This document shows positions 7,035-64,000 of a stretch of 64,000 nucleotides of DNA, in pieces; position 1 is the stretch's first letter, and each line of letters opens with the position of its first letter. Under the pieces are notes generated by a model. It was not told where the DNA came from and ran no database searches. It saw only the letters and a program-made list of their open reading frames with translations. Both the position numbers and the translations under genes were made by a program. This DNA comes from Candidatus Taylorbacteria bacterium RIFCSPHIGHO2_01_FULL_51_15 (GTDB taxonomy: Bacteria > Patescibacteriota > Minisyncoccia > Phycocordibacterales > UBA10002): positions 2,734-66,733 of the forward strand of contig MHRI01000030.1 in the NCBI GenBank assembly GCA_001820935.1, written 5' to 3'.

Positions 7035-7062
7035 TCTCGCCATTCTCTCGTCGGTATTTTCG

Positions 7063-7098
7063 GGTGCGGCTAAGAATTGGCCGCACCTTTTCATTTTT
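7063..7098 (+). terminator. Rho-independent terminator
   Basis: 'GGTGCGGC-taagaattg-GCCGCACC' followed by 'TTTTCATTTTT'. Confidence 0.65.
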
Positions 7099-7128
7099 CT
7101 GCCCACAAAAGGTATACTATTGGAGTAT

Positions 7129-9072: not shown

Positions 9073-9090
9073 CCGCTAGCTCGCTTTCCC

Positions 9091-26041: not shown

Positions 26042-26043
26042 AC

Positions 26044-27818: not shown

Positions 27819-27916
27819 TTCGGGGAGAGATAAGTTGCATTATCCCTCGACCCAGCTTACAGTAGATGCGCAAGAAGTTTCGATATAATTCTTTTGGAAT
27901 TTTTAACATACCATAG

Positions 27917-29987: not shown

Positions 29988-30022
29988 CCAAGCGCGTCAA
30001 ACTAGCGATACTACAGTGCGTT

Positions 30023-42566: not shown

Positions 42567-42570
42567 AGAC

Positions 42571-44094: not shown

Positions 44095-45054
44095 ATGATG
44101 GAAAAAACCGCAAAAATATATGTCGCAGGACATCGCGGACTTGTAGGATCGGCCCTCGTTCGCCGCCTCACCGCGCTTGGCTATTCCAATCTCCTCACGC
44201 GGACTCGCGCAGAACTCGACCTCTTGGATTCGAAAGCAGTTGCGGATTTCTTTCTGAAGGAGAAACCTAATTACGTCTTTCTGGCTGCCGCGCGCGTTGG
44301 AGGCATTCTCGCGAATAAGACCTATCCGGCAGATTTCATCTACGAGAATCTCCTTGTACAAACGAACGTCATTCATGAGGCCCATCTGCACGATGTTAAG
44401 AAGCTCCTCTTTTTAGGAAGTTCATGTATCTATCCTCGCCTCGCACCTCAACCGATGAAGGAATCTTATCTCCTTTCAGGTGAGCTCGAGGAAACGAACA
44501 GGGCCTATGCTATCGCCAAAATTGCCGGTATCATCACGTGTGAGTCATACCGCGACCAGTATGGGCTTCAATCGGTTTCGGTGATGCCGACGAACCTTTA
44601 TGGCCCAAATGATAACTTCGATCTTGAGCGTTCCCACGCGTTCCCCGGTCTCATCCGTAAGTTTCATGAGGCGAAGGTGCAGGGTAGGGAAGAGGTCGTG
44701 CTTTGGGGCACGGGCACTACCAAGAGAGAATTTTTGCACGCTGACGATCTTGCCGATGCCTGCATCTTTCTCATGAACACTTACGCGGGTAAGAAAATCG
44801 TCAATATCGGAACTGGGGAAGATATTTTCATAAAGGATTTCGCGCAGATGGTCAAAGAGGTCGTCGGTTTTCAGGGCCGCATTTTATGGGATGCGACAAA
44901 GCCCGATGGAACACCGCGTAAGCTTCTCGACGTAAGCCACCTTCACGATCTTGGCTGGCATCACCGGGTAGGTTTACGGGAAGGCCTCGAGGAAACCTAT
45001 AAATGGTTCCTTGTCCATGTCGCGCCATCCCTGCCCATTTCAGAAAAGAAATAA
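44095..45054 (+). CDS. fcl: GDP-L-fucose synthase (GDP-4-keto-6-deoxymannose 3,5-epimerase/4-reductase)
   Basis: 'IYVAGHRGLVGSALVRRL'. 'YAIAKIAGIITCESYRDQYG' YxxxK motif. Start at ATG 44095 (MMEKT). The upstream extension is rejected. Confidence 0.85.
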   Translation: MMEKTAKIYVAGHRGLVGSALVRRLTALGYSNLLTRTRAELDLLDSKAVADFFLKEKPNYVFLAAARVGGILANKTYPADFIYENLLVQTNVIHEAHLHDVKKLLFLGSSCIYPRLAPQPMKESYLLSGELEETNRAYAIAKIAGIITCESYRDQYGLQSVSVMPTNLYGPNDNFDLERSHAFPGLIRKFHEAKVQGREEVVLWGTGTTKREFLHADDLADACIFLMNTYAGKKIVNIGTGEDIFIKDFAQMVKEVVGFQGRILWDATKPDGTPRKLLDVSHLHDLGWHHRVGLREGLEETYKWFLVHVAPSLPISEKK

Positions 45055-46249: not shown

Positions 46250-47077
46250 ATCTTGTTTCATACAAAAGAGGTTTACAAAATCTGTTTCCCGCAAAAGCTC
46301 CGCGGGAAGATTCTTTGAGTTCGGGTCTACGGGAAGTAATGTATCTTTTTGGATCGCGAATATCTTAAATCCAAGCGAGGAGAGCTCACGGAAGAGTGCA
46401 TCCTGTGAAAATCCCGCCTGTGTTTGGCAGGACGGATTCCACTCTACAACGAGGCAAATGGAAGGCGCACTAAGCGTCTTACGCGCTCCGCGAATCGCCC
46501 CCATCTCTCCGCCTTCAATATCCATTTTTATAAGATCAACGCGCGTCTCACCTTTTTCCACGAGAAAAGCGTCAAGTTCCACCGATTCTACAGAAATAAC
46601 CTCTCTTTGTCGTGCCTCGTCCGGCACGAGACTGTGACACCCAGTCTTTTCGCTTCGATAGAAATTCATTGGTTTTTTGGCGTCGGAAACTGCCACTTTG
46701 CATGTAGTCACGTTTTTGAGGCGCCTCGTATTTTTCTCAAGTAACCCGAAGTTTTCAGGATCTGGCTCGAATGCATATATTTTCCCTCTGTTGCCCACGA
46801 GCTTCGAAAACAGGCGTGTAAAGTATCCAATATGCGCGCCCACGTCCACCACGACCATGCCCGGCTTAATTATTCTCTTGAAGAGATCATATGTTTCTTT
46901 TTCATAGATGCCCCAGAGCATATTAAGCTTCCACCGCCGTATGTAGTTATCCGGAAAAGAAAAGCCGTAGAACTTCGCGAGGAGAGCGGTAAGCGAATCA
47001 AGGATGGTATAAATAGCCCGATCAAGAGCCGGAGAGTGAATGTGAGTTCGATAGAATTTTCGTAATGTTCCGATCAT
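46238..47077 (-). CDS. FkbM-family SAM-dependent methyltransferase
   Basis: 'VVDVGAHIGYFTRLF' and 'IYAFEPDPENF' segments. 'VDLIKMDIEGGEMGAIRGA' is the FkbM signature. Confidence 0.75.
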   Translation of the reverse strand: MIGTLRKFYRTHIHSPALDRAIYTILDSLTALLAKFYGFSFPDNYIRRWKLNMLWGIYEKETYDLFKRIIKPGMVVVDVGAHIGYFTRLFSKLVGNRGKIYAFEPDPENFGLLEKNTRRLKNVTTCKVAVSDAKKPMNFYRSEKTGCHSLVPDEARQREVISVESVELDAFLVEKGETRVDLIKMDIEGGEMGAIRGARKTLSAPSICLVVEWNPSCQTQAGFSQDALFRELSSLGFKIFAIQKDTLLPVDPNSKNLPAELLRETDFVNLFCMKQDLPS

Positions 47078-48591
47078 AACTGCTTATCTTGAGCGAGGCC
47101 GGACTTCTTCGCAATAAGGTCGGCAAGGGGCTCGAGTCCTTGCTTTTTCTTCACTTCGTCGGTCTCATGTTCCCAGATATGTATAAAGGGAAGTGAAGCT
47201 GAATCTTCAAGTATGGCGGCAGTAAATGAGATAAGCTCCTTCTCATCGTAGTGGAAACCTTCAAGTTGCTCTTTAACGAGATAGGGAAGGGTTTCCAAGT
47301 CACGACACTTCTTGACCATCGAGAGATTATTGTAAAACTGATTACCGAACACGATAACAGGCTTTTTTAAGAGTAATCCTTCCCATCCGGCCGATCCGGT
47401 AACGGTAAAAATGAGCTTCGCCCCCGCGATCACCGTCAGTCCCTCGATCGCGGGACTAATGAGTTTTACGTTCGGTATTTTTCTAAGTTCTTTGTAATAG
47501 CTTCTCGGACGGTAGGCAACCATTTCCGGATGTTCTTTGACATAGAGGCTGTAACCTACCGGCAGAGATTTTGCCGCCTGCTTGATAAGGTGTATCTGGT
47601 CCTGTGCGAACGGAGCAAGGAGTAGCAGGCTCTGCTCCGGCTCAAAGTGCAGGGCAAAAAAAGCGTATGGCAAACGTGGGTCAAACGTATCGTAGAGATC
47701 TGACACGCCGTAGAGATTTCGGAGCTTCCGCTTCGTGCGATCCTTGAGAAAGTTCCACGGACTAAGAACGGTGTAATCCCCCCGATGCTTCGAGTACTCG
47801 ACTACGAGTTCCACAAAACAAGAAATCGAGTGAAGCGCGCGAGCGGGCAAGAGGAACCTGAATTGCTTCGTCCGGCTCACCTGCTGGCGCTTCGGCGAAG
47901 AATATTCATTGTACGGATGCGGAGAGAGTCTGAAATCTTCAATTATTTTTTTTGCTTCCTCTACGTACTCTTTCCTTGCCTCGCCACTTGCGGGATGCTT
48001 GAAAAGTGCATCGGCTCCCGTGAAGGTGTCAAAGGTTTCGCTGACGGCGAATCTATCCTTGAGGGGAGTGGTGAGAATATGCAGAATCTTTATTCCTCGC
48101 TTTTTCGCTATATGGTACATGAGGAGGCTCGATACGGCTCCGATTGACGAGAACACAATCGCGTCAGGCTTTTCTTTGTCAAGAAAGGCGATCACCGCTT
48201 TTGCAGCGACCTGTAGGATACGAAGCATCTCTTCGTGCGAAAGTACGGGCGTGTTGTAGGGATACTCCCGTGCCGCTTGATTAAACATAATCGTCCGGTC
48301 TACGGTAAGGTACGGCCAGAGATTCGGAATCCCGAATTCTTTCTCAAGTTTTTTGAGGTAGGGCAGGTCGAGTGCTTCGTTGTGGTAGCGCGCGTAAACA
48401 TCCTCGTCCAAAACCATATCACCATAGTTGATCTCTTTTTGTGTAGAGAGAAATGTGTAAATACGCCGGAGTCCCACGTAGGCGCAGAAATTCTTGAGCC
48501 CATACTTTTCTTGAAGCCACAGCGCGAGGAGATGGCCAGTGTAAGCGTAATTTCTCTGAAGGTAAAAGCAGATTTTGGGATTGGAATTCAT
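47074..48591 (-). CDS. Capsule-polysaccharide biosynthesis protein-like (KpsC/KpsS / TagB-related transferase)
   Basis: 'LYVKEHPEMVAYRPRSYY' and 'LKKPVIVFGNQFY' resemble Capsule_synth-family C-terminal motifs. ATGA overlap with the downstream FkbM gene. Confidence 0.45.
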   Translation of the reverse strand: MNSNPKICFYLQRNYAYTGHLLALWLQEKYGLKNFCAYVGLRRIYTFLSTQKEINYGDMVLDEDVYARYHNEALDLPYLKKLEKEFGIPNLWPYLTVDRTIMFNQAAREYPYNTPVLSHEEMLRILQVAAKAVIAFLDKEKPDAIVFSSIGAVSSLLMYHIAKKRGIKILHILTTPLKDRFAVSETFDTFTGADALFKHPASGEARKEYVEEAKKIIEDFRLSPHPYNEYSSPKRQQVSRTKQFRFLLPARALHSISCFVELVVEYSKHRGDYTVLSPWNFLKDRTKRKLRNLYGVSDLYDTFDPRLPYAFFALHFEPEQSLLLLAPFAQDQIHLIKQAAKSLPVGYSLYVKEHPEMVAYRPRSYYKELRKIPNVKLISPAIEGLTVIAGAKLIFTVTGSAGWEGLLLKKPVIVFGNQFYNNLSMVKKCRDLETLPYLVKEQLEGFHYDEKELISFTAAILEDSASLPFIHIWEHETDEVKKKQGLEPLADLIAKKSGLAQDKQL

Positions 48592-49502: not shown

Positions 49503-50288
49503 TTGGTTATTCATTTTATGAAGAACATCCGCATTATCCCAACCCTCCATATCAAAGGATCGAACGTGGTAAAGCCGGTACACACCGAAGCCCTTCGTGT
49601 TGTGGGCCATCCAAAGGAGCTTGCCCTCCGTTACTACCGCGAGGGAGCTGATGAACTTATCTATCTCGATATTGTCGCGAGCCTGTACCAGCGCAATTTT
49701 GATTTTGAGTTACTCAAATCCGTTTCCGAAGAAATCTTCATCCCGATTACGGTTGGAGGAGGCATCCGCTCGCTCTCCGATATCAAAAATGCTCTGCGTG
49801 TCGGAGCCGACAAAGTCGCCATCAATACGTATGCCGTGCATCACCCCGAGTTCTTGAAAGCCGCCGCAGAAGAGTTCGGCTCGCAGTGTATCGTGCTCTA
49901 CATTGAGGCCAAGGAAAAAGGGGACGGGAGGTGGGAGGTCTATACAGATGGCGGGCGGGAGAGCACCGGTGTTGATGCCGTGGAATGGGCGAAAAGGACA
50001 ATAGACCTTGGTGTAGGCGAAATCCTCCTCACTTCCATTGATCGCGATGGAACACGGAAGGGATATGACCTCGAGCTTACCTCTGCCATCGCTTCAACGT
50101 CTCCCATTCCCGTCATAGCCCATGGAGGCGCGGGGAATGCCGCTCACCTGGAAGAGATTATCAAGAAGGGAAAGGCGGACGCCGTGGGAGTGTCATCCAT
50201 TTTTCACTACGCGGAGACGGATATTGGAGCCGTGAAGAAAAATTTGAGTGGACGGGAAATCAATGTGAGAGCAAATTATTCTAATTAG
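49503..50288 (+). CDS. hisF: Imidazole-glycerol-phosphate synthase cyclase subunit HisF homolog (glycan-locus paralog, WbuZ-like)
   Basis: '[15 protein letters not shown]' and 'DELIYLDI' segments. '[10 protein letters not shown]' and '[11 protein letters not shown]' are HisF signatures. Confidence 0.8.
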
Positions 50289-50400
50289 TCTAATTGCCCT
50301 AATTATTCTAAGGAATATCAAAAAACCAATTTCCAAGTTAAACATTCGCAGTTAGGATTTCATTAGGTCAATTAGAATAATTAGGGTACTTAGGTCAATT
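50289..50400. mobile_element. MITE-like 112-bp element with terminal inverted repeats (no cargo)
   Basis: Left 'TCTAATTGCCCTAATTATTCTAAGGA'. Right 'GTCAATTAGAATAATTAGGGTAC', which is the reverse complement of CCCTAATTATTCTAATTGAC. Fills the hisF-hisH spacer. Confidence 0.6.
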
Positions 50401-50410
50401 TTTCATTCTT

Positions 50411-51058
50411 ATGAAATCTATCGTTATCATCGATTATGGAGTTGGTAACCTGCAAAGCTTGCGGAAGGCTTTCGCCCACTTCGGCGTTGAAGCGGTTGTG
50501 TCCGAAGACGCAAAGGAAATTGAGGTGGCAGATGCAGTGGTACTCCCCGGAGTGGGCTCATTCGAAGCGGGCATGCGAGGGCTGCGCCTTCGTGGACTCG
50601 TGGAGACCGTGCAGAAGCGCGCAAAAGAAAACCAACCTATGCTGGGCATCTGCCTTGGGGCACAGCTCCTGCTTTCCAAGGGTTATGAGTTCGGCGAGCA
50701 CGATGGGCTTAACATCATCCCGGGTGAAGTGGTTCGATTCGATGAGCGAGAGATGAAGGAGAAAATACCGCAGGTCGGATGGAACAGGGTGTATCCGAGC
50801 GGAGATGTTTCTTGGAAAGGAAGTATCCTCGAATCGAATGGGCCTAAGTCTGTTATGTATTTTACCCATTCATACATCTTTGCGCCGAAGCAAAAAGAGC
50901 ATATGTTTGGCGTAACTGTGTATGGCGGCAAGGAATTTTGCTCGGTCATTCGGAAAGGTAACATCTATGGCTGTCAATTCCATCCGGAAAAAAGCGGAGA
51001 AGCCGGACTTCGGCTTATCAGGAACTTCATTTCACTCGCATCAGCACCTCGTGCATAG
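50411..51058 (+). CDS. hisH: Glutamine amidotransferase subunit HisH homolog (WbuY-like)
   Basis: 'IVIIDYGVGNLQSL' and 'VVLPGVGSF' segments. 'MLGICLGAQLL' Cys nucleophile. 'GCQFHPEKS' His motif. Confidence 0.8.
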   Translation: MKSIVIIDYGVGNLQSLRKAFAHFGVEAVVSEDAKEIEVADAVVLPGVGSFEAGMRGLRLRGLVETVQKRAKENQPMLGICLGAQLLLSKGYEFGEHDGLNIIPGEVVRFDEREMKEKIPQVGWNRVYPSGDVSWKGSILESNGPKSVMYFTHSYIFAPKQKEHMFGVTVYGGKEFCSVIRKGNIYGCQFHPEKSGEAGLRLIRNFISLASAPRA

Positions 51059-51061
51059 CTT

Positions 51062-51137
51062 TTCTTTTCTACTATACTACGTAGCATAGTAGAAAAGAAA
51101 AACCCGCTTCGATCCGCGTGAGCGAATCGAAGCGGGT
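51062..51137. terminator. Twin-hairpin bidirectional terminator region between the convergent hisH and transporter genes
   Basis: Hairpin 1: 14-bp AT-rich stem 'TTCTTTTCTACTAT/ATAGTAGAAAAGAA'. Hairpin 2: 12-bp stem 'ACCCGCTTCGAT/ATCGAAGCGGGT', with a T-run on the minus strand. Confidence 0.55.
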
Positions 51138-51144
51138 AGAGATC

Positions 51145-52113
51145 CTACTCCTGGCTGAAATTCAGGGCGATAAGCAAACTGCCCGTAAGTGCAGCGGCGA
51201 ACAGTATCCATTCTGTTGTGTCATAGTGCTTATTCTCCTTGAAGATGAACAGCCCCATAACGATAGGGCAGATGACCGATGCCACAAGTATTATCGGAGA
51301 CATGACAGCAAGCGGTGCAAGATGCAGGGTCCAAAAGGTGACAAGTACGCTCAAGATGGTCGTGATCGCAAGCAAGGCAACGAACACCGTATTCATGCTT
51401 AACGTCTTCTCCGCCGTTCCGTCCTCTCTTGTTCTCATTCGTAAGACAAGCGTTATGAGGAGTGAGGAGAAGAATGTTCCTGCATACCATGCGCCGATAA
51501 AGACCTCTGTCGGAAGACTTCGGAGCGCAAAGACCCGAACCAGAAAGTTGCTGATACCGAAGCAGACGGCAAAAGTCCCTGCGTATAGAAAAAAAGAAGG
51601 GGGAAGTCTTTCCTTCGGTTCTCCTTTCCGCTTTTTCTTTCCATACCGCTGATACAGTGCGAAGACTCCGATAGCTCCGACTGAAAGCAGTATTCCCGAA
51701 AGCATCAATCCGGAAAGCCGAGCGTGTTCGCGAAGCCATATCTGTTCGAAGATGAGCGGAAGAATGGAGTTGATGATAAGAAAAAGGCTCGTGGCACTCA
51801 AATTCATTCGTGTCGCTTGCCAGAATGCATAGTTGCCCAAGGCGACGATTGTCCCTATCAGGAAGGGTGCGACGAGGGCGGAGGATATCGGCATTTTTCC
51901 AAGAGCGAAGAGCGGCAGTGTGGTCAGTCCAAAGCAAACGACGTAGAAGAGCATGAACCGCTGTTTGGTGTTTCGGGTAGCCACTTTTCCTTTAAGAAGG
52001 AGTGGCACCGCAATGTTTGAGAGGGCTATCTGTAAGATAAGAGGAAGGTACCATTTCATATCATTTGGTGTAACACCTATCATTTCATCCTGTGCCAGCC
52101 TATCCTTTTCCAA
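51145..52113 (-). CDS. DMT/EamA-like polytopic membrane transporter
   Basis: About 10 TM helices in two similar halves. No soluble domain. Confidence 0.45.
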   Translation of the reverse strand: MEKDRLAQDEMIGVTPNDMKWYLPLILQIALSNIAVPLLLKGKVATRNTKQRFMLFYVVCFGLTTLPLFALGKMPISSALVAPFLIGTIVALGNYAFWQATRMNLSATSLFLIINSILPLIFEQIWLREHARLSGLMLSGILLSVGAIGVFALYQRYGKKKRKGEPKERLPPSFFLYAGTFAVCFGISNFLVRVFALRSLPTEVFIGAWYAGTFFSSLLITLVLRMRTREDGTAEKTLSMNTVFVALLAITTILSVLVTFWTLHLAPLAVMSPIILVASVICPIVMGLFIFKENKHYDTTEWILFAAALTGSLLIALNFSQE

Positions 52114-52240
52114 GACTTTTTCAAGTGCCCTATAGTTGTATATACTGTAGCCAAATCTTTTAATGTATAGACATTCTTTTGGATTTTTAGAAGTTAGGTA
52201 AATTCGAAATTAGAAATTCAATTTTGTCTTCAAAATTTTT

Positions 52241-53473
52241 ATGCCTCCCTACGGACTTCCCGAAAAAATAAGGTTCTGCGAACGCTGTCTTGCTTCGAAC
52301 GCACAGCCGATTTCGTGCAACGAGTACAAGCATACGCCAGAGATGAAGCACGAGTACATCAAGTTTGACGACGAGGGTATTTGCGCCGCGTGCCGTTTTT
52401 TCGAAGCTCGCAAGAACGGGGTTATTGATTGGGAAGCTCGCGAGAAAGAACTCCTCGCACTTCTCGACCAGTATCGTTCAAGTGATGGATCCTACGACTG
52501 CCTCGTGCCGGGAAGCGGCGGTAAGGATAGTGCATACGCGTCTCACGTCTTGAAATACAAATACCGTATGCACCCTCTTACCGTTACATGGACGCCGCAC
52601 CTCTACACCGACATCGGTCGGAAGAATTTTGATAATTGGATTAACATGGGGGGATTCGATAATTACCTGTTCTCTCCCAACGGCAAAGTACATCGACTGC
52701 TCACACGAAATGCTTTCCTCAATCTCCTCCATCCATTTCAACCGTTCATTCTCGGACAAAAAACCTTTGCCCCAAAAATGGCCGCGCGGTTTGGTATCAA
52801 ACTTATTTTCTACGGAGAGAATCAGGGGGAGTATGGCGACAAAACTTCCGTAAATCAGAGAAAGTTTATTATGGGGGGTTCGAAGGACGAGAAAGATAAA
52901 GGATTCCGGCTCGACTACGCGAAGCCGAGCGATCCACCCGAAGAGGTATTTTTGGGAGGAAAGTCGCTTGCGGAGTATTTCAAAGAGGGACTTTCCTACG
53001 CCGACCTCGCTCCGTTCCTGCCCGCAGACCCTGCCATCATCGCAAAGAACGAGATAGAGTTCCACTACCTTGGCTACTACCTGAAGTGGGTGCCGCAAGA
53101 CTGCTACTATTACGCGGTCAAATATACCGGCTTTGAAGCGAATCCGGTGCGCACTGAAGGGACCTACTCGAAGTACAACTCTATCGACGACAAGACAGAC
53201 GGCTTCTTCTACTACACCACCTTCATCAAGTTTGGGTTCGGACGCGCTCGCTACGATGCTTCACAGGAGATTCGGAACGGACATATCACCAAAGAAGAAG
53301 GTGCCGCGCTCATCAAACGATTCGACGGCGAATTCCCCAAACGCTATTTCCCCGAGTTCCTCGACTACATCGGTCTTACCGAAAAAGAATTCGAGGGTAC
53401 CATCGATTCTTTCCGTACCCCGCATTTGTGGAAGAAGGAGGGCGGAGAGTGGAAACTGAAGCAGAGAGAATAA
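52241..53473 (+). CDS. N-acetyl-sugar amidotransferase (PP-loop ATPase; WbuX/LfnA/PtmG-type)
   Basis: 'CERCLASNAQPIS' and 'CAACRFFE' zinc ribbon. 'CLVPGSGGKDSAYASHV' PP-loop (SGGKDS). Confidence 0.8.
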   Translation: MPPYGLPEKIRFCERCLASNAQPISCNEYKHTPEMKHEYIKFDDEGICAACRFFEARKNGVIDWEAREKELLALLDQYRSSDGSYDCLVPGSGGKDSAYASHVLKYKYRMHPLTVTWTPHLYTDIGRKNFDNWINMGGFDNYLFSPNGKVHRLLTRNAFLNLLHPFQPFILGQKTFAPKMAARFGIKLIFYGENQGEYGDKTSVNQRKFIMGGSKDEKDKGFRLDYAKPSDPPEEVFLGGKSLAEYFKEGLSYADLAPFLPADPAIIAKNEIEFHYLGYYLKWVPQDCYYYAVKYTGFEANPVRTEGTYSKYNSIDDKTDGFFYYTTFIKFGFGRARYDASQEIRNGHITKEEGAALIKRFDGEFPKRYFPEFLDYIGLTEKEFEGTIDSFRTPHLWKKEGGEWKLKQRE

Positions 53474-53957
53474 ATTAGTCTAATTAACCTAATTATTCTA
53501 ATTGACCTAAGGAAATCGCAATGACAGAGAAAAACCCAAAATATGATCTGGAAGAGCGTACTGCAAAATTCGGGGAAGCAGTCGTGTTGTTTGCGAAGAA
53601 AATACCCGTCACGCCGGTAACTCAACGTATCATTCCGCAATTGGTCGCTTCCGGTACTTCGATCGGCAGTAATTATTGTGAGGCTGATGACGCCGAATCC
53701 GGAAGAGATTTTGTCCATAAACTCGGCATCTGTAAAAAGGAAGCGCGGGAAACCAAACACTGGCTTCGAATAATATCTGTCGCTGTTCCGGAGTTACGGG
53801 ATGATGCACGAGTCTTATGGAAAGAAGCAAATGAGCTCAACCTGATTTTCAATGCTATCGTAAGGAAGGTTCGAAATAAGGGGAAAGTTGTTGTGGACAT
53901 TGGTATTTAGGATTTCTTTAGAATAATTAGGTTAATTAGAGCAATTAGAATAATTCC
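53474..53957. mobile_element. IVS-like insertion element: perfect 22-bp terminal inverted repeats flanking a four-helix-bundle protein gene
   Basis: Left TIR 'CTAATTAACCTAATTATTCTAA' (53479-53500). Right TIR is the exact reverse complement (53918-53939). Same TIR family as the elements at 49400, 50289 and 55263. Confidence 0.65.
53521..53910 (+). CDS. Four-helix-bundle protein (TIGR02436 / 23S rRNA intervening-sequence protein family)
   Basis: 129 aa. 'ERTAKFGEAVVLFAKKIPVTP...QLVASGTSIGSNYCEA...ETKHWL' is a typical signature. Confidence 0.75.
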   Translation: MTEKNPKYDLEERTAKFGEAVVLFAKKIPVTPVTQRIIPQLVASGTSIGSNYCEADDAESGRDFVHKLGICKKEARETKHWLRIISVAVPELRDDARVLWKEANELNLIFNAIVRKVRNKGKVVVDIGI

Positions 53958-53960
53958 CCC

Positions 53961-55262
53961 ATGCTAAAAACAGGAAGCAAAAAGTACAGAAAGTCCTTAG
54001 CGCACTACGAAGTTGCAAAGCAGCTTCTTCCCAATCAGACCCAGACCTTGAGTAAAGGGCCGGGGCAGTTCGTCCCGGGAGAGATGCCGCTTTTCAACAA
54101 ACGAGCAAAAGGCTGCTACGTATGGGACGTCGACGGCAACAAGTATCTTGATTTTATCGGGGCGCGTTGGCCCATTATCCTCGGGTACGCCTATCCGTCC
54201 GTGGATAGAGCGATCAAGCGCCAACTGAAGGACGGCATCACCTTTCCACAGCCCCATCCCCTCGAGGTGGAGGTGGCGGAACTACTTACCGAAGTCATTC
54301 CTTCCGCCGAGATGGTGCGATTTGCCAAAAACGGTTCGGATGCGACGAGCGGTGCCGTCCGTATCGCGAGGGCCTTTACAGGACGTGAGATCATACTCCA
54401 ATGCGGCTATCATGGCGCGCAAGATTGGTTCCTTATTACCACAGCGCGAAATGCCGGTGTACCGAGGTGTCTAAAAGAAATCATACACTCATTCAATTAC
54501 AACGACCTTCCCTCGCTTGAAGCGCTTTTTAAGCGCTTCAAGGGCAAGGTCGCGGCGGTCATTATGGAGCCAATGTACGCGAAGGAGCCGAAGGACAATT
54601 TTCTTCAAAAAGCAAAAGATCTCGCGCATAAAGAAGGGGCGCTCCTTATCTTCGATGAGATCATTACCGGATTTCGATGGAGTATCGGCGGCGCGCAGAA
54701 ATATTTTGGCGTAACTCCCGACCTGTCTTGTTTTGGCAAGGCGATGTCGAATGGTATGCCGCTTTCGGCTATTGTGGGACGAAGGGATGTTATGCAAGGC
54801 ACCGAACATATTTTCCTTTCTATGACCTATGGTGGCGAGTGTCTCTCGCTTGCGGCGGCGAAAGCAACCATTACAGAGCTTAGGAAACCCGCAGTGCTCG
54901 CCCATATCTGGAAGATGGGTGGACTGGTTAAAAAGGGAGTGCAAGCCCTCATCAACAAACACGGTCTTATCGATGTTGTCGAATGTATCGGTGTGCCCCC
55001 GACTCCGGTCATGACATTTAAAAACGCGCGGGGGGAAAGTGAAAGCGCGCTCAAAACTCTGTTCCAGAAGTATCTCTTTGACCAGCACATTATGTACGCG
55101 GGCTATTTCAACATGACTTACAGTCATACACGGAAGGACGTAGAAACCGCGCTTACGGCAGTTGACCGCGCATTCGGCTCCCTGTCAAAAGACCTCGAAG
55201 CGAAGTCGGTGGGGAAGAAAATGTCGCACCCCCCCGAACCGGTTTTTAAGCATGCAAACTAG
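53961..55262 (+). CDS. Class III PLP-dependent aminotransferase (glutamate-1-semialdehyde aminomutase-like)
   Basis: 'YVWDVDGNKYLDFIGARWPIILGYAYP' and 'LIFDEIITGFR' segments. 'FGKAMSNGMP' carries the PLP-lysine. Confidence 0.8.
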   Translation: MLKTGSKKYRKSLAHYEVAKQLLPNQTQTLSKGPGQFVPGEMPLFNKRAKGCYVWDVDGNKYLDFIGARWPIILGYAYPSVDRAIKRQLKDGITFPQPHPLEVEVAELLTEVIPSAEMVRFAKNGSDATSGAVRIARAFTGREIILQCGYHGAQDWFLITTARNAGVPRCLKEIIHSFNYNDLPSLEALFKRFKGKVAAVIMEPMYAKEPKDNFLQKAKDLAHKEGALLIFDEIITGFRWSIGGAQKYFGVTPDLSCFGKAMSNGMPLSAIVGRRDVMQGTEHIFLSMTYGGECLSLAAAKATITELRKPAVLAHIWKMGGLVKKGVQALINKHGLIDVVECIGVPPTPVMTFKNARGESESALKTLFQKYLFDQHIMYAGYFNMTYSHTRKDVETALTAVDRAFGSLSKDLEAKSVGKKMSHPPEPVFKHAN

Positions 55263-55391
55263 AAAATTATCCTAATTGACTTAATTGCTCTAATTATTCT
55301 AAATAAATCTCAATGTCTAATTCTCAACGAAGATTTTGATATTTCAGGCTTTCCTCAGGTCAATTAGAATACTTAGGTGAATTAGAAATTC
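55263..55391. repeat. Degenerate copy of the AT-rich TIR element (129 bp). Its right end supplies the RBS for neuA.
   Basis: Left 'CTAATTGCTCTAATTATTCTAA'. Right 'CAATTAGAATACTTAGG', which is the reverse complement of CCTAAGTATTCTAATTG (2 mismatches). Confidence 0.5.
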
Positions 55392-56117
55392 ATGTCTCTC
55401 ACATTTCTCGGTATCATTCCCGCCCGCGGGGGAAGCAAAGGCATCCGGAACAAAAATATCCGCGCCTTTGCCGGCAAGCCGCTTATCGCATACGCCATAG
55501 ACGCGGCAAAAAAATCACGATATCTTTCGCGAACCGTCGTCTCGACAGAGTCGGAAGAGATAGCGCGCGTGGCGAAGGAGTATGGCGCGGAGGTCCCGTT
55601 TCTTCGCCCAAAAGAACTTGCCGAGGATACAAGCAAAGTGTTTGACGCGATAGCCCATCTACTCGAGAAATTGAAGACGGACGAAGGATATGCACCCGAT
55701 TATATCGTGCTCCTTCAGCCAACCTCTCCGCTCCGAACGGCAAAGGACATTGATGCGACCATAGCTCTGCTTTTGAAGCACAGCGCCGATTCGGCCATCA
55801 CCGTTTCGGTGGTAGAGCCACGAGTCTTTGTCAAGGCCGCGGACGGTGTACTCACGCTCGCGAGCGATGAGAAATTCCTGCGCTCGACCAACCGACAGGC
55901 GCTCGAGCATACCGTGAGCGAGAACGGCTCAATGGTCTACGTAAACCGCGTCAGCACGCTACTTTCCACGGGAAACTTTTTGGGCGGCAAACTGGTTGGA
56001 ATAGAGACTCCGAAATGGCGCTCGATTGACCTAGATTCTCCTGAGGATTTCGTACTCGGGGAACTTATCGCCAAGCATCGGGCGGAGATGGAAGAGAGCA
56101 TCACCAATTTTAAATAA
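55392..56117 (+). CDS. neuA: Acylneuraminate (nonulosonic acid) cytidylyltransferase
   Basis: 'IIPARGGSKGIRNKNIRAFAGKPLIAYAI' and 'LQPTSPLR' are CMP-NeuAc synthetase family signatures. Confidence 0.8.
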   Translation: MSLTFLGIIPARGGSKGIRNKNIRAFAGKPLIAYAIDAAKKSRYLSRTVVSTESEEIARVAKEYGAEVPFLRPKELAEDTSKVFDAIAHLLEKLKTDEGYAPDYIVLLQPTSPLRTAKDIDATIALLLKHSADSAITVSVVEPRVFVKAADGVLTLASDEKFLRSTNRQALEHTVSENGSMVYVNRVSTLLSTGNFLGGKLVGIETPKWRSIDLDSPEDFVLGELIAKHRAEMEESITNFK

Positions 56118-56118
56118 T

Positions 56119-56952
56119 ATGCACAACCTTAAGGAATTATTTTCCCTCAAAGGCCGGATCGCCGTCGTGACGGGAGGTCAGGGCGATTTGGGTAGCGAGT
56201 ACGTAAAGACTTTGGCATCGGCCGGAGCAAAAGTAGTCGTGCTGGACATCAAGAAAGAGATACACCCCAAAATCCGGGAACTATGCGATGCGGGTGCAGA
56301 GATTGTAACTTTCACGGTTGACCTCACGGAAAAAGGGGAAGTGCGAAAAGCATTCGGAGAAATCAGAAGCACATTAAGAGATACTCCAAGCATCCTTATC
56401 AACAACGCAGGTCGCGCCACGCATCCAAATGCGCCGAAAGAAGAGAGCGGGCCGTTTGAAGACTATCCGGAGGAAGTATGGGAAGGCATGCTCGATTCGC
56501 ACCTTAAGGCCGCCTTGCTTGCGTCGCAAGAATTTATACGTTCCTACAAAAGTGCGAAGAAGACACAGGGCAGTATCATCAATGTGTCCTCAACATACGG
56601 ATTGGTATCGCCGGAGCAGGGTATGTACGAATTTAGGAGAAAAAGCAAAGGAGCCTACTACAAACCTATTGGGTACAGCGTCGCCAAATCCGGTATGCTC
56701 GGCTTCACCAAATGGCTCGCGGAGTACTGTGCGTTTGAGAAGACGGGTATTCGCGTGAATACGCTCGTGCCGGGCGGAGTTGAAGCAGGTCAGGATCCTA
56801 CATTTATACGTGAATACGAGAAGCGCACCATGCTCGGGCGCATGGCGAACAATAGCGATTACAACGGCGCGATACTCTTTCTCGCTTCCAACGCCTCGGC
56901 CTACATGACCGGCGCGGAACTTGTCGTTGATGGGGGATGGACAGCGAGATGA
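56119..56952 (+). CDS. SDR-family oxidoreductase
   Basis: 'GRIAVVTGGQGDLGSE' Rossmann motif. 'YSVAKSGMLGFTKWLA' YxxxK motif. Confidence 0.8.
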   Translation: MHNLKELFSLKGRIAVVTGGQGDLGSEYVKTLASAGAKVVVLDIKKEIHPKIRELCDAGAEIVTFTVDLTEKGEVRKAFGEIRSTLRDTPSILINNAGRATHPNAPKEESGPFEDYPEEVWEGMLDSHLKAALLASQEFIRSYKSAKKTQGSIINVSSTYGLVSPEQGMYEFRRKSKGAYYKPIGYSVAKSGMLGFTKWLAEYCAFEKTGIRVNTLVPGGVEAGQDPTFIREYEKRTMLGRMANNSDYNGAILFLASNASAYMTGAELVVDGGWTAR

Positions 56953-56975
56953 GCGGAATGACACATAACTGAAGA

Positions 56976-57000
56976 CCGGAGCGCTCCGGATTTTTTAGGT
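56976..57000 (+). terminator. Weak rho-independent terminator candidate
   Basis: Palindrome 'CCGGAGCGCTCCGG' followed by 'ATTTTTT'. Confidence 0.45.
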
Positions 57001-57050
57001 TATTCAGTCATTCAGTTATACGTTATCAGTTATTCAGTGACATTGAGCAA

Positions 57051-58103
57051 ATGAAATATCCCTACATCCAAATAGGCAACCGCAGGATAGGAAGAAACTA
57101 TCCGCCGTTTGTCGTTCCCGAAGTCGGCATCAATCACGAGGGCAGTTTGGCGAAAGCAAAACGCATGGTAAAAGATGCGAAGAAGGCCGGGGCCGAGTGC
57201 GTCAAGTTCCAATGCCACGTGATTGAGGATGAAATGACTCCCGCGGCAAAGACAGTCATTCCGGGGAATGCAAAAGAATCAATCTGGGACATCATGGAGC
57301 GGTGCGCTCTGTCGGAATCGCAGGACAGGGAACTCAAAAAGTATGTTGAGGATTTAGGCATGATGTACCTCTCCACCCCATTCTCACGCGCCGCGGCAAA
57401 CAGACTTGAACGGCTCGGCGTTCTCGCGTACAAAATCGGCTCCGGCGAGTGCAACAACTACCCACTCGTACGACATATCGCTTCATTCGGAAAACCGGTG
57501 ATTCTTTCTACGGGTATGAATGACATCGCCTCGATCAAGGAGAGTGTCGCTATTCTTCGGAAGAAGAAAATTCCATACGCGCTTCTCCACTGTACCTCTA
57601 TGTATCCGACGCCCTATGAGAAGGTGCGTCTTGGCGCTCTGCAGGAACTTTCGAGAATATTTCCCGACGCGGTAATAGGGCTCTCTGATCATTCAATGGG
57701 GAACTATACCTGCTTTGCCGCAACGGCGCTTGGCGGCTCGATACTTGAGAAACATTTCACCTCCGACAAACGCTGGCCCGGTCCCGATGTCCCGATATCC
57801 ATTGATCCGTCCGGACTTGCCGATCTCATCGAAGGATCAACCGCTATTTATTCGGCCCTTGGCGGAGAGAAGACAGTCCTAAAGGAAGAACAGCCGACAA
57901 TCAACTTCGCATATGCTACAGTGGTGGCGATACAGGATATACCGAAAGGGGAAAGACTTACTTTAGAAAATATCTGGGTAAAGCGTCCAGGCACCGGAAA
58001 AATCCAAGCCGCAAGGTTCGATGAACTTCTCGGATCGGTGGCGACAAGGCATATACGCATACACGAAGCGATTTCATGGGAAAAAATACAAAAAAGAAAG
58101 TAG
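57051..58103 (+). CDS. neuB: N-acetylneuraminate / legionaminate-type nonulosonic acid synthase (NeuB family)
   Basis: 'PFVVPEVGINHEGSLAKAKRMV', 'KIGSGECNNYPL' and 'GLSDHS' are NeuB TIM-barrel signatures. C-terminal SAF/AFP-like domain. Confidence 0.85.
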   Translation: MKYPYIQIGNRRIGRNYPPFVVPEVGINHEGSLAKAKRMVKDAKKAGAECVKFQCHVIEDEMTPAAKTVIPGNAKESIWDIMERCALSESQDRELKKYVEDLGMMYLSTPFSRAAANRLERLGVLAYKIGSGECNNYPLVRHIASFGKPVILSTGMNDIASIKESVAILRKKKIPYALLHCTSMYPTPYEKVRLGALQELSRIFPDAVIGLSDHSMGNYTCFAATALGGSILEKHFTSDKRWPGPDVPISIDPSGLADLIEGSTAIYSALGGEKTVLKEEQPTINFAYATVVAIQDIPKGERLTLENIWVKRPGTGKIQAARFDELLGSVATRHIRIHEAISWEKIQKRK

Positions 58104-59233
58104 CCTTCCTTACCGGCACGCGCGCGGACTTCGGAAAGATCAAGCCTCTCATTGGGAGAGTCGTTGCCGATGGAAATTTCGATGTGCACATCTTTGCTAC
58201 CGGGATGCATATGGATAGTAAGTACGGCAGTACCGTCGAAGAAATCGAAAAGACAGGATTCCCCAATATCTATAAATTCATTAATTACACTGGCTCATCG
58301 ACTCTTGATGCGATCATGGGGAACACTGTGCTTGGCTTTGGGAACTTCGTGCGGCAAGTGGAGCCTGATCTTATCGTCGTGCACGGCGATCGGAGCGAAG
58401 CCATGGCGGGCGCGCTTGTCGGGGCACTAAGTAACATCCACGTGAGCCATATCGAAGGAGGTGAAGTTTCGGGAACCGTTGACGAAATCATTAGGCACGC
58501 CGTGAGCAAACTCTCACATACCCATTTTGTCGCGAATGCGGAAGCGAAAAGGCGACTCGTGCAGATGGGCGAACGAGAGACTTCGGTGTTTGTGATCGGT
58601 TCGCCCGATCTTGATATCATGAAGTCAGACGAACTCCCGGACTTTAAAACGGTGCAAAAGAATTACGCCATTCCGTTTAGCCGTTACGGCATCGTTATCT
58701 TTCATCCAGTTACGACCGAGGTAGGCGGACTGCTGAAGGAAACAAAGCAGCTCGTGGAAGCGCTTCAAGCATCCAAGTTCAACTATGTGGTGATCTACCC
58801 GAACAATGATCCGGGCACCGATGTCATCTTAAGTGTCTATGAGGAAAAGCTCCGACGGGATAAACACTTCGCGCTTTACCCCTCCATGCGCTTCGAATAT
58901 TTTCTTAGTTTGCTCAAACACGCTCACTTTATTATTGGCAATTCAAGCTCGGGTGTGCGCGAAGCTCCTTTCTATGGAGTCCCGGTCATCAATGTCGGGA
59001 GCCGACAGAAAAACCGCGTGAAAGCAAAAGAAGGGGGAGGCATCTTTGATGTCGGTCATGCGAGCGCCGAAATCCTCTCACACATTTTGAAGTTTTCCAA
59101 AAAGCGGGTTCGTTTCGAATCGACGAACGGATTCGGCAGCGGAGGGAGCGCCGATAACTTTATGAAGATCTTGAAGGATGGAAGACTCTGGAACATCGGT
59201 ATACAAAAACAGTTTTTAGACATTACCTTCTAA
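58076..59233 (+). CDS. neuC: UDP-N-acetylglucosamine 2-epimerase (hydrolysing), NeuC family
   Basis: 'KKVAFLTGTRADFGKIKPL' and 'VHGDRSEAMAGALVGAL' segments. 'HIEGGEVSGTVDE' catalytic region. Confidence 0.85.
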   Translation: MGKNTKKKVAFLTGTRADFGKIKPLIGRVVADGNFDVHIFATGMHMDSKYGSTVEEIEKTGFPNIYKFINYTGSSTLDAIMGNTVLGFGNFVRQVEPDLIVVHGDRSEAMAGALVGALSNIHVSHIEGGEVSGTVDEIIRHAVSKLSHTHFVANAEAKRRLVQMGERETSVFVIGSPDLDIMKSDELPDFKTVQKNYAIPFSRYGIVIFHPVTTEVGGLLKETKQLVEALQASKFNYVVIYPNNDPGTDVILSVYEEKLRRDKHFALYPSMRFEYFLSLLKHAHFIIGNSSSGVREAPFYGVPVINVGSRQKNRVKAKEGGGIFDVGHASAEILSHILKFSKKRVRFESTNGFGSGGSADNFMKILKDGRLWNIGIQKQFLDITF

Positions 59234-62815: not shown

Positions 62816-63606
62816 GTGCGTTATATGAAAGGACAATAGATGAGGTCTACAAAGCACTTGGCGCATTTTCGAAACCTTACGAAATTGACAAAAAACGCTT
62901 TGCGTCTTCGCTTCGACTCCTGAATGAGCGAGAACTCATACGAGGCAAGAAAATACTCGATCTCGGGAGCGGCGTTTGCATCTTTCCGATCGCGCTTAAA
63001 AGACTTGGTGCAGAAGTCGTCGGGTTCGATAAGTTTATCTTTCCTAGCGCGTTTGATAATCCCTATCGGATTGCTGATTTTAAGGCTCTCCAGACTATCT
63101 GGGACAAGGAGGGCATTACGGTGCGAGAGGGAGACCTTCTCAAAAGACTGCCGTTCGAAGAGGGCGAGTTCGATCTTGTAAACTCTGATTGCACGATTGA
63201 GCATCTACTCGACTCACCGAAATCACTCTTTGCAGAGGTGAGGCGTGTCCTCCGGCCTGGCGGAACATTTCTTCTCACTACTCCCAATCTCGCGAATCTG
63301 TCACGCCGTATACGATTCCTTCTTGGCCGGAGTCCCTATTGGGATCTTCGGGAATACTTTGATGGAGAGGCGCACTTCACTGGTCATCGGCGGGAGTTTA
63401 CGCTATCTGAACTTTGTGAGCTTCTTTCTTGGTCGGGATTTTCTGTGACACTCCAAAAGACGCAGAATTCATTTTTCAGCGTGAACCGACTTCTGCACCC
63501 ACGTAAATGGATGGCCCATGTTGCCAGTGCGCTCTCCTTTCCGTTCCCCAGAATGCGGGAAATCTTATTCGTACTTTGCCAGAAGCCGGTCCGGAAAGAG
63601 CTATGA
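62812..63606 (+). CDS. Class I SAM-dependent methyltransferase
   Basis: 'ILDLGSGVCIFPIAL' motif I. 'VLRPGGTFLLTTPN' segment. ATGA overlap with the ABC gene. Confidence 0.65.
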   Translation: MSALYERTIDEVYKALGAFSKPYEIDKKRFASSLRLLNERELIRGKKILDLGSGVCIFPIALKRLGAEVVGFDKFIFPSAFDNPYRIADFKALQTIWDKEGITVREGDLLKRLPFEEGEFDLVNSDCTIEHLLDSPKSLFAEVRRVLRPGGTFLLTTPNLANLSRRIRFLLGRSPYWDLREYFDGEAHFTGHRREFTLSELCELLSWSGFSVTLQKTQNSFFSVNRLLHPRKWMAHVASALSFPFPRMREILFVLCQKPVRKEL

Positions 63607-64000
63607 GACTATTTTTAGTACAGTGGGGTGGAGAGGAGAAGGAGCTCTTCGATGTAGCAAAAGAGCTACAGAAATCGCACGAGATAGTCTATTGGATGCA
63701 GAGTCGGGAGCATTTCTCCCTCCTGCGCAAGGACTTCCCCAATGCCGTCTTTCACGACGTACGCGATGCACTGAATGGTATCCCGGCGAGCGGAGTCGAT
63801 ACATCGAACTTCGTAAAGGTCGACAGTAATCTTCTCAAAAGACTCCTGTGGGCGGAGTCGTTTATAATGGGGATGATTACGAAGCACCATAGTGATTTTA
63901 CTGAAGCACAAAAACTGGAGTTCTATCATGAACTACTCAACTACTGGAAAGGGATGTTCGATGTGTTGAAGCCCGAAGCAATCATCTTTCCGATGACGCC
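63603..64000 (+). CDS. Hypothetical protein, 3'-truncated by the window end
   Basis: Open frame from ATG 63603 (ATGA overlap with the upstream stop) to the window end. Not in the ORF track because no stop is reached. Confidence 0.35.
   Translation, partial: MRLFLVQWGGEEKELFDVAKELQKSHEIVYWMQSREHFSLLRKDFPNAVFHDVRDALNGIPASGVDTSNFVKVDSNLLKRLLWAESFIMGMITKHHSDFTEAQKLEFYHELLNYWKGMFDVLKPEAIIFPMT

Follow-up and report, generated by a model that had tools for sequence, protein, structure and literature searches.

A nonulosonic acid gene cluster with a Legionella-type amidotransferase trio in a Candidatus Taylorbacteria genome, predicted to encode an acetamidino sugar of possible neuraminic type

The stretch of DNA analyzed here (the window) comprises 64,000 nt of contig MHRI01000030.1 of Candidatus Taylorbacteria bacterium RIFCSPHIGHO2_01_FULL_51_15, a member of the candidate phyla radiation (CPR), and contains a cluster in which nonulosonic acid (NulO) genes are combined with the genes of an N-acetyl sugar amidotransferase (NASAT) and its HisF- and HisH-like partners. 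Gene identities were assigned by profile searches with Pfam, NCBIfam (TIGR) and PRK models together with an open reading frame listing, and the searches covered the window plus 10 kb of contig downstream (about 74 kb, locus label L090). Homologous loci in other genomes and metagenomes are denoted by L-numbers, L087 and L088 being the closest relatives. The NulO and amidotransferase core genes all lie on the plus strand, between positions 49503 and 59233 (Table 1). HisF, HisH, NASAT, a class-III aminotransferase, a CMP-transferase, a short-chain dehydrogenase/reductase (SDR), NeuB and NeuC were all found where the initial annotation, made from the letters alone, had placed them, and its guess of a small-genome, possibly episymbiotic host agrees with the source of the DNA. 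The module extends beyond these limits on both sides, with a PF05159 protein and a methyltransferase at the 5' end and methyltransferases, an ATP-binding cassette (ABC) exporter and a second PF05159 protein at the 3' end. The feature is a real NulO gene cluster in a CPR bacterium, and the analysis shows its gene identities, clade memberships, conserved linkage and the active-site changes in the HisF paralogue. We see a roughly even chance that the module produces a CMP-activated NulO of the neuraminic lineage in which the 5-N-acetyl group is converted to an acetamidino (acetimidoylamino) group and which is then tailored further.

Table 1. Predicted genes of the NulO/amidotransferase module and of the surrounding glycan island (window positions; aa, amino acids; SAM, S-adenosylmethionine; PLP, pyridoxal phosphate; GSA, glutamate-1-semialdehyde; TM, transmembrane; TMD-NBD, transmembrane domain and nucleotide-binding domain; GATase, glutamine amidotransferase)
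Position	Strand	Predicted product	Supporting match or remark
6874-10659		Type IV secretion coupling protein/HerA ATPase-like protein, 732 aa; then PKD + lamin-tail-domain protein, 522 aa	Weak TraG/TrwB/DUF87 matches (732-aa protein)
23565-32391		Deoxysugar sub-cluster	Includes sugar C-methyltransferase, 29891-31288
39660-44003		Three-gene cassette resembling the O-methyl phosphoramidate pathway
44095-45054		GDP-fucose synthase	Near cutoff
47074..48591	-	KpsC/KpsS-like 'Capsule_synth' protein, 505 aa; candidate CMP-ulosonic acid transferase	PF05159
48649..49386	+	Class I SAM methyltransferase, 245 aa, directly 5' of hisF	Pfam Methyltransf_31/25/11
49503/49518..50288	+	HisF paralogue, NASAT-linked	PF00977, 231 bits
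50411..51058	+	HisH-type class I glutaminase (WbuY function)	TIGR01855, 207 bits
51145..52083	-	Polytopic membrane protein, ~10 TM segments	Hydropathy scan
52241..53473	+	NASAT (PP-loop ATP pyrophosphatase)	TIGR03573
53521..53910	+	Four-helix-bundle '23S rRNA intervening-sequence protein'	PF05635, 43.7 bits; TIGR02436, 68 bits
53961..55262	+	Class-III (GSA-aminomutase-like) PLP aminotransferase	PF00202, 188 bits; PRK06209, 409 bits
55392..56117	+	CMP-nonulosonate synthetase (NeuA-type cytidylyltransferase)	PF02348, 96.9 bits
56119..56952	+	Classical SDR (TGxxxGxG, YxxxK)	PF13561/PF00106
57051..58103	+	NeuB nonulosonate synthase + SAF domain
58076..59233	+	NeuC hydrolysing NDP-HexNAc 2-epimerase	TIGR03568, 403 bits
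59242..59904	+	TylF-family O-methyltransferase	PF05711, 81.6 bits
60079..61029	+	Class I SAM methyltransferase, 316 aa	PF13489, 84.6 bits
61037..62815	+	ABC exporter (fused TMD-NBD); candidate for export of a glycan or lipid-linked glycan	PF00664 + PF00005
62812..63606	+	Class I SAM methyltransferase, 264 aa	PF08241 and related models
63603..64000	+	Second putative ulosonate transferase, 5' part; 475 aa, runs past window end	PF05159 type; L090:10792-12219
~63603-69900		Second ulosonic-acid set: PF05159 transferase, second CMP-transferase, AP_endonuc_2, SDR, SIS isomerase, NeuB-like synthase, cupin, HAD (KdsC-like) phosphatase; then Wzy_C-TPR protein	L090:10792-17075

The window NASAT scores 336.9 bits with TIGR03573 (cutoff 203.2) and 498 bits with PDB entry 8WEX, the Legionella pneumophila NASAT and the sole solved member of the family, to which it is 54% identical over the full length. 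The two motifs described for the family, a PP-loop SGGxDS and a zinc-binding tetracysteine CxxC...[GN]xCxxC (PMC10607449), are represented by SGGKDS at residues 92-97 and by C13xxC16 with G46-I-C48-A-A-C51, the tetracysteine being invariant across a 12-sequence alignment; a C-terminal insertion typical of the Legionella NASAT sub-clade is missing. Identity to NASATs of NeuC-less, pseudaminic (Pse)-like clusters amounts to 27-31%. By sequence, the window NASAT is assigned to the NulO-linked Legionella ORF28 lineage, which the literature equates with Campylobacter jejuni PtmG; ORF28/PtmG were reported to convert CMP-Leg5Ac7Ac to CMP-Leg5Am7Ac (PMC3766260). The trio had initially been labelled as of the WbuX/WbuY/WbuZ type, which holds at the superfamily level but not as orthology, since the window NASAT is just 24% identical to Escherichia coli O145 WbuX, over 191 residues, versus 54% to the L. 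pneumophila protein. Orthology to the E. coli trio was also rejected for the HisH- and HisF-like proteins (34% to WbuY and 33% to WbuZ, the WbuZ model being below its cutoff), and the window holds no fnl genes. The O145 WbuX/Y/Z proteins, which make L-FucNAm, and Pseudomonas aeruginosa WbpG/HisH2/HisF2 nevertheless share the three-protein architecture and the presumed chemistry of the window trio; the substrates of both are UDP-hexosamine derivatives.

The HisF-like protein only just exceeds the cutoff of the TIGR00735 hisF model (296.5 bits, cutoff 294.55), and the WbuZ model TIGR03572 gives 271.6 bits, under its cutoff of 299.7. These scores, together with 273 bits to a reconstructed ancestral HisF and conserved phosphate-binding glycines, are what would be seen if hisF and hisH encoded a genuine imidazole-glycerol-phosphate (IGP) synthase of histidine biosynthesis that merely sits beside glycan genes. 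The active site argues otherwise. Asp11 and Asp130 (Thermotoga maritima numbering) are catalytic residues of the HisF cyclase, and both are kept in E. coli, Pyrobaculum and ancestral HisF, but in the window protein they are replaced by His and Glu, respectively. When 79 NASAT-linked HisF paralogues were aligned with true HisF sequences, position 130 was found to be Glu in 75 of them, the L. pneumophila protein included, Gln in two and Val in two, and Asp in none, and R5, E46, K99 and E167 of the ammonia gate, as well as D98, which contacts HisH, were invariant in all 79. O145 WbuZ has lost D11 (Leu) and kept D130, whereas the window protein is changed at both. The HisF-like protein is, moreover, 55% identical to the NASAT-linked L. 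pneumophila HisF2 and only 37% identical to E. coli HisF. Its HisH partner (42% identical to L. pneumophila HisH2) retains the catalytic Cys (GICLGAQ) and the His-x-Glu pair (FHPEKS), so that the triad is complete in sequence. Loss of the cyclase aspartates with retention of the gate, D98 and the glutaminase triad is the pattern expected of a glutaminase and ammonia channel devoid of cyclase chemistry, and we propose that the HisF-like protein is a NASAT-linked paralogue with WbuZ/HisF2 function, acting as an ammonia-channelling partner and not as a cyclase. A search for other histidine-pathway genes, which the initial annotation had called for, found none in the about 74 kb covered. CPR bacteria, to our knowledge, generally lack amino-acid biosynthesis, and the hisF/hisH pair accompanies NASAT genes across genomes (see below), so a true IGP synthase at this locus appears extremely improbable. 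The two aspartate replacements and the adjacency to NASAT instead uphold the earlier reading of these genes as partners of a PP-loop amidotransferase. Because the paralogue scores above the hisF equivalog cutoff, automated pipelines will name it IGP synthase subunit HisF; the Glu130 signature offers a simple way to keep them from applying that name to NASAT-linked paralogues.

A collection of 185,579 species genomes was scanned with the window NASAT. The scan returned 80 loci with NASATs 54-82% identical to the query, and linkage was counted in the 54 loci that have at least 6 kb on both sides of the NASAT gene (identity at least 54%). In 52 of the 54 loci, both hisF and hisH are found no more than 3 kb from NASAT. 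NeuB, NeuC and CMP-transferase genes are found near NASAT in 48, 49 and 47 loci, respectively, and 42 loci contain HisF, HisH, NeuB, NeuC and the CMP-transferase together. At least one NulO gene lies within 10 kb of NASAT in 52 loci, and none of the three in the remaining two. In three relatives (L087, L088 and L089), NASAT is the immediate neighbour of neuA or of the neu block. Five NeuB proteins were tested, and all five score higher with TIGR03569 than with the PseI model. The linkage of the trio to NulO genes indicates that the amidine is most likely carried by a nonulosonic acid, and bears out the claim that the two gene sets are functionally tied, as in Legionella and Campylobacter.

The trio could instead amidate a different N-acetyl sugar of the island, its adjacency to the neu genes being coincidental. 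A precedent is found in E. coli O145, where WbuXYZ make FucNAm while neuABC separately make Neu5Ac within one O-antigen cluster, and the window encodes many further sugar enzymes, including RmlA/B, Gmd, Fcl, a UDP-sugar dehydrogenase and AsnB; the two NASAT loci that have no nearby NulO gene would also accord with this possibility. However, the O145 trio is only distantly related to that of the window, and in the reference O-antigen cluster it adjoins fnlABC, apart from neuCAB, which shows that adjacency tracks the substrate. The window contains no FnlA/B/C or WbpA/B/D/E/I equivalents, and the NASAT clade is not only linked to NulO genes but often forms one tight operon with them. We therefore regard amidation of another island sugar as improbable; by its genomic context, the window amidine most probably goes on the nonulosonic acid. 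One of the two exceptional loci, L064 from an uncultured Flavobacteriaceae metagenome-assembled genome (MAG), carries NASAT, HisF and HisH beside homologues of the C26 GATase and NTP transferase encoded elsewhere in the window, with no NulO genes within 10 kb of the trio.

The identity of the nonulosonic acid was approached through NeuB, NeuC and NeuA, with N. meningitidis siaA/siaB/siaC, E. coli K1 and O145 neuC/A/B, and L. pneumophila neuA/B/C (the characterised legionaminic acid (Leg) enzymes) as references. The window NeuB is 58% identical to Neisseria meningitidis SiaC, 36% to the E. coli K1 protein and 34% to those of both E. coli O145 and L. pneumophila; for the window NeuC, the values are 45% (N. 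meningitidis SiaA), 34% (K1), 32% (O145) and 34% (L. pneumophila). Phylogenetic placement of NeuB and NeuC had been suggested with the initial annotation, and neighbour-joining trees with 100 bootstraps put both proteins with the Neisseria enzymes and not with the Legionella Leg enzymes. NeuC forms one clade with ten homologues and N. meningitidis SiaA (100/100), and NeuB lies inside a SiaC-like clade (99/100), of which sub-clade A holds SiaC (97/100) and sub-clade B the window protein (95/100). The legionaminic or pseudaminic backbone first predicted finds no support in the trees. NeuA is 32-40% identical to the N. meningitidis, K1, O145 and L. pneumophila proteins (32% to the first), reaches 153 bits with the PseF model, under its cutoff, and gives 78-97 bits with NeuA/CMP-Neu5Ac synthetases of the PDB.

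Gene content follows the type of NeuC. No LegB/PglF dehydratase, LegC/PglE aminotransferase or PglD/LegH acetyltransferase was found in the about 74 kb, the LegB and LegC hidden Markov models scoring far under their cutoffs; the only 4,6-dehydratases of the window are RmlB and Gmd, and the sole DegT aminotransferase sits with a C-methyltransferase and RmlA/B. A PseB/LegB-type dehydratase is absent from all 11 loci with a SiaA-clade NeuC (the window, L016, L047, L050, L053, L067, L074, L081, L085, L086 and L088). In contrast, it is present in all five loci that combine the same NeuB lineage with another NeuC type (L019, L025, L062, L077 and L087; PF02719 324 bits in L087). Taken together, the NeuC and NeuB clades, the gene content and the lack of Leg/Pse precursor genes in the searched sequence favour a neuraminic-type backbone, made from UDP-GlcNAc and with the 9-hydroxyl kept, which we hold with moderate confidence. 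With regard to the amidotransferase trio the initial annotation was right, and with regard to the sugar backbone it was probably wrong.

Several routes to other sugars or functions were tried and rejected. A pseudaminic pathway is excluded, as NeuC is present, no PseB/C/G/H was seen in the sequence searched, and NeuB scores 369 bits with TIGR03569 against 225 bits with the PseI model (cutoff 340) and 149 bits with PseI of the PDB. An SpsE-like identity, named beforehand as an observation that would speak against the prediction, does not apply either, since NeuB gives 164 bits with Bacillus subtilis SpsE (1VLI) and 427 bits with N. meningitidis NeuB (1XUU). Some tools proved uninformative for the split between neuraminic and legionaminic enzymes. 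The NCBIfam models TIGR03569 and TIGR03568 span both, and every NeuC type tested passes the cutoff; comparison with PDB entries does not separate NeuC types, the window and L087 proteins both reaching ~195-206 bits with Acinetobacter baumannii LegG and human GNE. No NeuB alignment columns were found that cleanly separate dehydratase-less from dehydratase-bearing loci; NeuB instead divides into sub-clades A and B whether or not a dehydratase is present.

A number of observations weigh against a neuraminic backbone. The sub-clade B NeuB has Ser, Phe and Trp at the positions of N. meningitidis N184, H54 and R243, residues common to the five dehydratase-bearing loci; a difference between pathways at position 184 has been proposed (PMC7371886), and a 4-amino or 6-deoxy hexose might accordingly be the preferred substrate of the synthase. 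NeuB of E. coli K1, which is a true Neu5Ac synthase, shows 43% identity to Legionella NeuB and 38% to Neisseria NeuB, and K1 NeuC falls outside the SiaA clade. Bona fide Neu5Ac enzymes are hence polyphyletic, clade membership is an imperfect guide to substrate, and simple pairwise identity was set aside as an unreliable guide to function. The L. pneumophila dehydratase is encoded outside its locus (PMC3766260), so that absence from 74 kb does not prove absence from the genome. The chemistry of the Legionella NASAT is itself deduced from structure. Finally, the route proposed below leaves the SDR and the class-III aminotransferase unexplained.

Some of these points lend themselves to the sugar originally predicted, an acetamidino legionaminic (or pseudaminic) acid, for which genes of a UDP-diNAcBac-type precursor would lie elsewhere in the genome or be partly replaced locally by the SDR and the class-III aminotransferase. 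The L. pneumophila Leg5Am7Ac locus, whose dehydratase is itself encoded elsewhere, holds the closest counterparts of NASAT, HisF and HisH, and in most loci of the window NASAT clade DegT and dehydratase genes accompany a NeuB of Legionella-like type (42-52% identical). Sub-clade B NeuB proteins also occur with PseB/LegB-like dehydratases in the five loci named above, and in the closest relative, L087, such a dehydratase lies beside the class-III aminotransferase. Against this, the L087 NeuC is of a different type (35% identical to that of the window), the SiaA clade to which the window NeuC belongs never co-occurs with the dehydratase in 11 loci, NeuB and NeuC are far from the Legionella Leg enzymes, and no LegB, LegC or PglD model matches the searched sequence; the pseudaminic variant falls with the NeuC and PseI results. 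We consider an acetamidino legionaminic acid rather unlikely.

Several known systems share features with the window. The L. pneumophila lipopolysaccharide locus, which makes CMP-Leg5Am7Ac, has the order NASAT (ORF28, 8WEX)-hisF-hisH-neuA-neuB-neuC-pglD-like-DegT; it shares with the window the clustering of the same six gene families, the Glu at position 130 of the HisF paralogue, and the PP-loop and tetracysteine motifs. It differs in that PglD-like and DegT genes adjoin and a dehydratase lies elsewhere, whereas the window has none of these in the about 74 kb, adds an SDR, a class-III aminotransferase and several methyltransferases, and encodes NeuB and NeuC of other clades. The N. meningitidis siaA-siaB-siaC genes, which lead to CMP-Neu5Ac, encode the clade-mates of the window NeuC and NeuB but are accompanied by no NASAT, HisH or HisF, and the window NeuB differs from SiaC at the three residues listed above. 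The C. jejuni system, compared by description only, comprises PtmG (Cj1324)/PseA (Cj1316c) and the hisF/hisH homologues Cj1314c/Cj1315c and yields flagellin Leg5Am7Ac and Pse5Ac7Am. It resembles the window in concept, as NASAT turns the N-acetyl group of a CMP-NulO into an acetamidino group and PtmH then N-methylates the amidine (PMC3766260; April 2026 preprint), but its sugars are 9-deoxy diamino acids made via LegB/C/H or PseB/C/H.

A closer counterpart is found in eight non-CPR loci (L047, L050, L053, L067, L074, L081, L085 and L086), which carry a compact neuA-neuB-neuC-hisF-hisH-NASAT operon in hosts including Vibrio brasiliensis, Methylophilus, Sulfurimonas, Bacteroidia and others. Like the window, these operons have a NeuC of the same clade (50-54% identical), a NASAT of the same clade (55-60%) and no dehydratase. 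They differ in their NeuB, which belongs to sub-clade A (62-68% to N. meningitidis SiaC, Asn184 retained), and have neither the SDR nor the class-III aminotransferase; in most, a gene of the pyruvyl-transferase family comes after NASAT, a PS_pyruv_trans (PF04230) gene being directly 3' of it in five of the seven loci tested. Two of the loci adjoin fliD. The compact operon is a candidate dedicated cassette for CMP-5-acetamidino-neuraminic acid ('Neu5Am').

We infer the following route for the window module, in its chemical steps, their order and the identity of the acceptor. NeuC, of the SiaA clade, would convert UDP-GlcNAc to ManNAc, which NeuB, of the SiaC-like clade, would condense with phosphoenolpyruvate to a Neu5Ac-type acid, and NeuA would then add CMP. 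The PP-loop NASAT would use ATP to activate the acetamido carbonyl, with AMP and pyrophosphate as products, to judge by its fold. Ammonia freed from glutamine by the HisH paralogue would pass through the barrel of the HisF paralogue and displace AMP, giving the amidine. The SDR, the class-III aminotransferase and the TylF-type and class I methyltransferases may tailor the sugar further, and a PF05159 (KpsC/S-like) transferase and the ABC exporter would place it on the cell surface.

A more specific version of this proposal is that the window cluster and the compact operon, which at least eight non-CPR genomes of several phyla carry, form a dedicated Neu5Am pathway, of which the CPR version gives a 9-hydroxylated, methylated diamino NulO; this we put forward tentatively, as somewhat short of an even chance. 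The SDR and the class-III aminotransferase would then oxidise and aminate the C4 hydroxyl of the hexose (C7 of the NulO) with no 6-deoxygenation. We know of no 9-hydroxylated diamino nonulosonic acid of that kind. Mass spectrometry peaks 'consistent with' CMP-Neu5Am in C. jejuni are the sole hint of an amidine-bearing neuraminic acid (April 2026 preprint).

Clusters of NASAT with HisH/HisF and neuABC are already known from Legionella, Campylobacter and Vibrio, and the CPR genes described here are already annotated in public MAGs. What is new is the pairing of Legionella-type amidotransferase machinery with SiaA/SiaC-lineage enzymes, no Leg/Pse precursor genes being present in the about 74 kb, and the recurrence of a compact version of this pairing across phyla. 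The occurrence in a CPR bacterium, singled out at first as notable, is less unusual than this suggested: many CPR lineages have close homologues, and the sialic-acid genes of Peribacteria received a one-line mention in 2016 (PMC4736985), beyond which nothing was found in the literature on nonulosonic acids in Patescibacteria/CPR.

Acetamidino nonulosonic acids are surface determinants of Legionella, Campylobacter, Vibrio and Tannerella, and the amidine cancels the negative charge of the sugar and alters its recognition. Neisseria-type sialic-acid enzymes beside amidotransferases point to an amidine-bearing sialic acid proper, which, if Neu5Am, would be zwitterionic, and they provide a gene set ready for in vitro testing. 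The very small genome of this CPR bacterium sets aside over 70 kb for an elaborate surface glycan, which bears on host attachment and on evasion of hosts and phages.

Of the two enzymes left without an assigned step, the SDR reaches just 110 bits with the PtmA model and has homologues in L087 (73%) and L088 (65%); those of the class-III aminotransferase are 61% and 40% identical, respectively, and are kept with neuA/neuB. In both relatives the two genes accompany neuA/neuB, and three different gene orders are seen. The pair occurs in none of the 80 genome loci of the NASAT scan. A metagenome scan with the class-III aminotransferase returned 80 loci (labels L096-L175), and in the 48 assessed loci longer than 9 kb the homologues, 40-62% identical, were nearly always inside a NulO cluster. 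Two arrangements recur: the aminotransferase lies either between a PseB/LegB-like dehydratase with DegT and a NeuB homologue, or together with an SDR beside a short NeuB-like synthase, a HAD phosphatase and a SIS isomerase. In Pse-like clusters it adjoins PseB/PseC-like genes. By these associations, the PRK06209-type class-III aminotransferase is considered a widespread accessory gene of NulO clusters. Such an enzyme is listed, with no role given, in the L. pneumophila Sg6/Sg12 clusters, and an unassigned aminotransferase listed for the Leptospira NulO cluster may be of the same kind. Replacement of DegT by the class-III enzyme was rejected as a general rule, as in most metagenome loci it occurs with both DegT and the PseB/LegB-like dehydratase. 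In the Bacteroidetes locus L053, an Fe-alcohol dehydrogenase and a LegC-family aminotransferase occupy the equivalent position, which suggests an 'oxidise then aminate' step, and the window SDR is possibly a tailoring oxidoreductase paired with the class-III aminotransferase. No acyltransferase for a new amine is present in the cluster.

The O- and C-methyltransferases noted initially as flanking the cluster fared differently. The TylF-family O-methyltransferase does adjoin it, whereas the C-methyltransferase lies ~18 kb upstream in a dTDP-sugar sub-cluster with RmlA, RmlB and DegT. A 72% identical TylF homologue is located 3' of neuC in L088 and a 48% identical one between neuB and neuC in L074; these neighbourhoods assign the gene to the module, and the enzyme probably O-methylates the NulO. 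The class I methyltransferases also have counterparts in the relatives: a 52% homologue of the 245-aa protein lies directly 5' of hisF in L088, a 51% homologue of the 316-aa protein has the same position in L088, and a 60% homologue of the 264-aa protein is found 3' of the ABC exporter in L087. By analogy with PtmH, the 245-aa enzyme could possibly N-methylate the amidine. The methyltransferase adjacent to the Legionella NASAT shows no homology to any methyltransferase of the window.

With respect to transfer and export, the 505-aa PF05159 protein (34.9 bits) also gives a weak match to NF046086, the BFO_1060 glycosyltransferase domain, and a homologue lies beside the module in L087 (62%), L088 (50%) and L009/L010/L012 (45-47%), making it a candidate transferase for the CMP-activated ulosonic acid. 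The ABC exporter has homologues in L087 (60%) and L088 (49%), and the second PF05159 protein matches CapS2 of L088 at 39%.

Two genes not mentioned in the initial annotation interrupt the set. The membrane protein with ~10 TM segments has no Pfam or NCBIfam match, and only the cluster version of this genome has one between hisH and the NASAT gene, L087, L088 and L089 having none; it stands outside the conserved module. The '23S rRNA intervening-sequence' gene was not found in L087 and L088 and is an insertion and no pathway member.

The whole window is a glycan island, which exceeds 70 kb and combines two pathways to ulosonic acids with deoxysugar pathways and a phosphoramidate cassette. The second ulosonic-acid set, just downstream of the window and also carried by L088, includes a short NeuB-like synthase (288 aa, no SAF domain), and is a putative Kdn-/Kdo-like route through a phosphorylated substrate. 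The cassette of three genes is similar to the O-methyl phosphoramidate (MeOPN) pathway of Campylobacter. The product of its first gene has 968 aa and carries a cytidylyltransferase-like domain at the N terminus, followed by PPDK_N and PEP-utiliser domains (PRK05849, 854 bits, cutoff 501), a model that we take to be linked to the Cj1418 glutamine kinase. The second gene codes for a Peptidase_C26 GATase, which among NCBIfam models matches gamma-glutamyl-CDP-amidate hydrolase best, at 99.6 bits and below cutoff, and the third for an NTP transferase. The cassette would represent a phosphoramidate modification in a CPR bacterium. The deoxysugar sub-cluster comprises RmlB (dTDP-glucose 4,6-dehydratase, 386 bits), Gmd on the minus strand, RmlA, two GT2 glycosyltransferases, a class I methyltransferase, the sugar C-methyltransferase (PF08421/PF08484) and the DegT aminotransferase, a combination that predicts a C-methylated amino-deoxysugar. 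A near-cutoff GDP-fucose synthase follows the phosphoramidate-like cassette, and just upstream of the glycan island the gene for the coupling protein/HerA ATPase-like protein is followed by that for the PKD and lamin-tail-domain protein.

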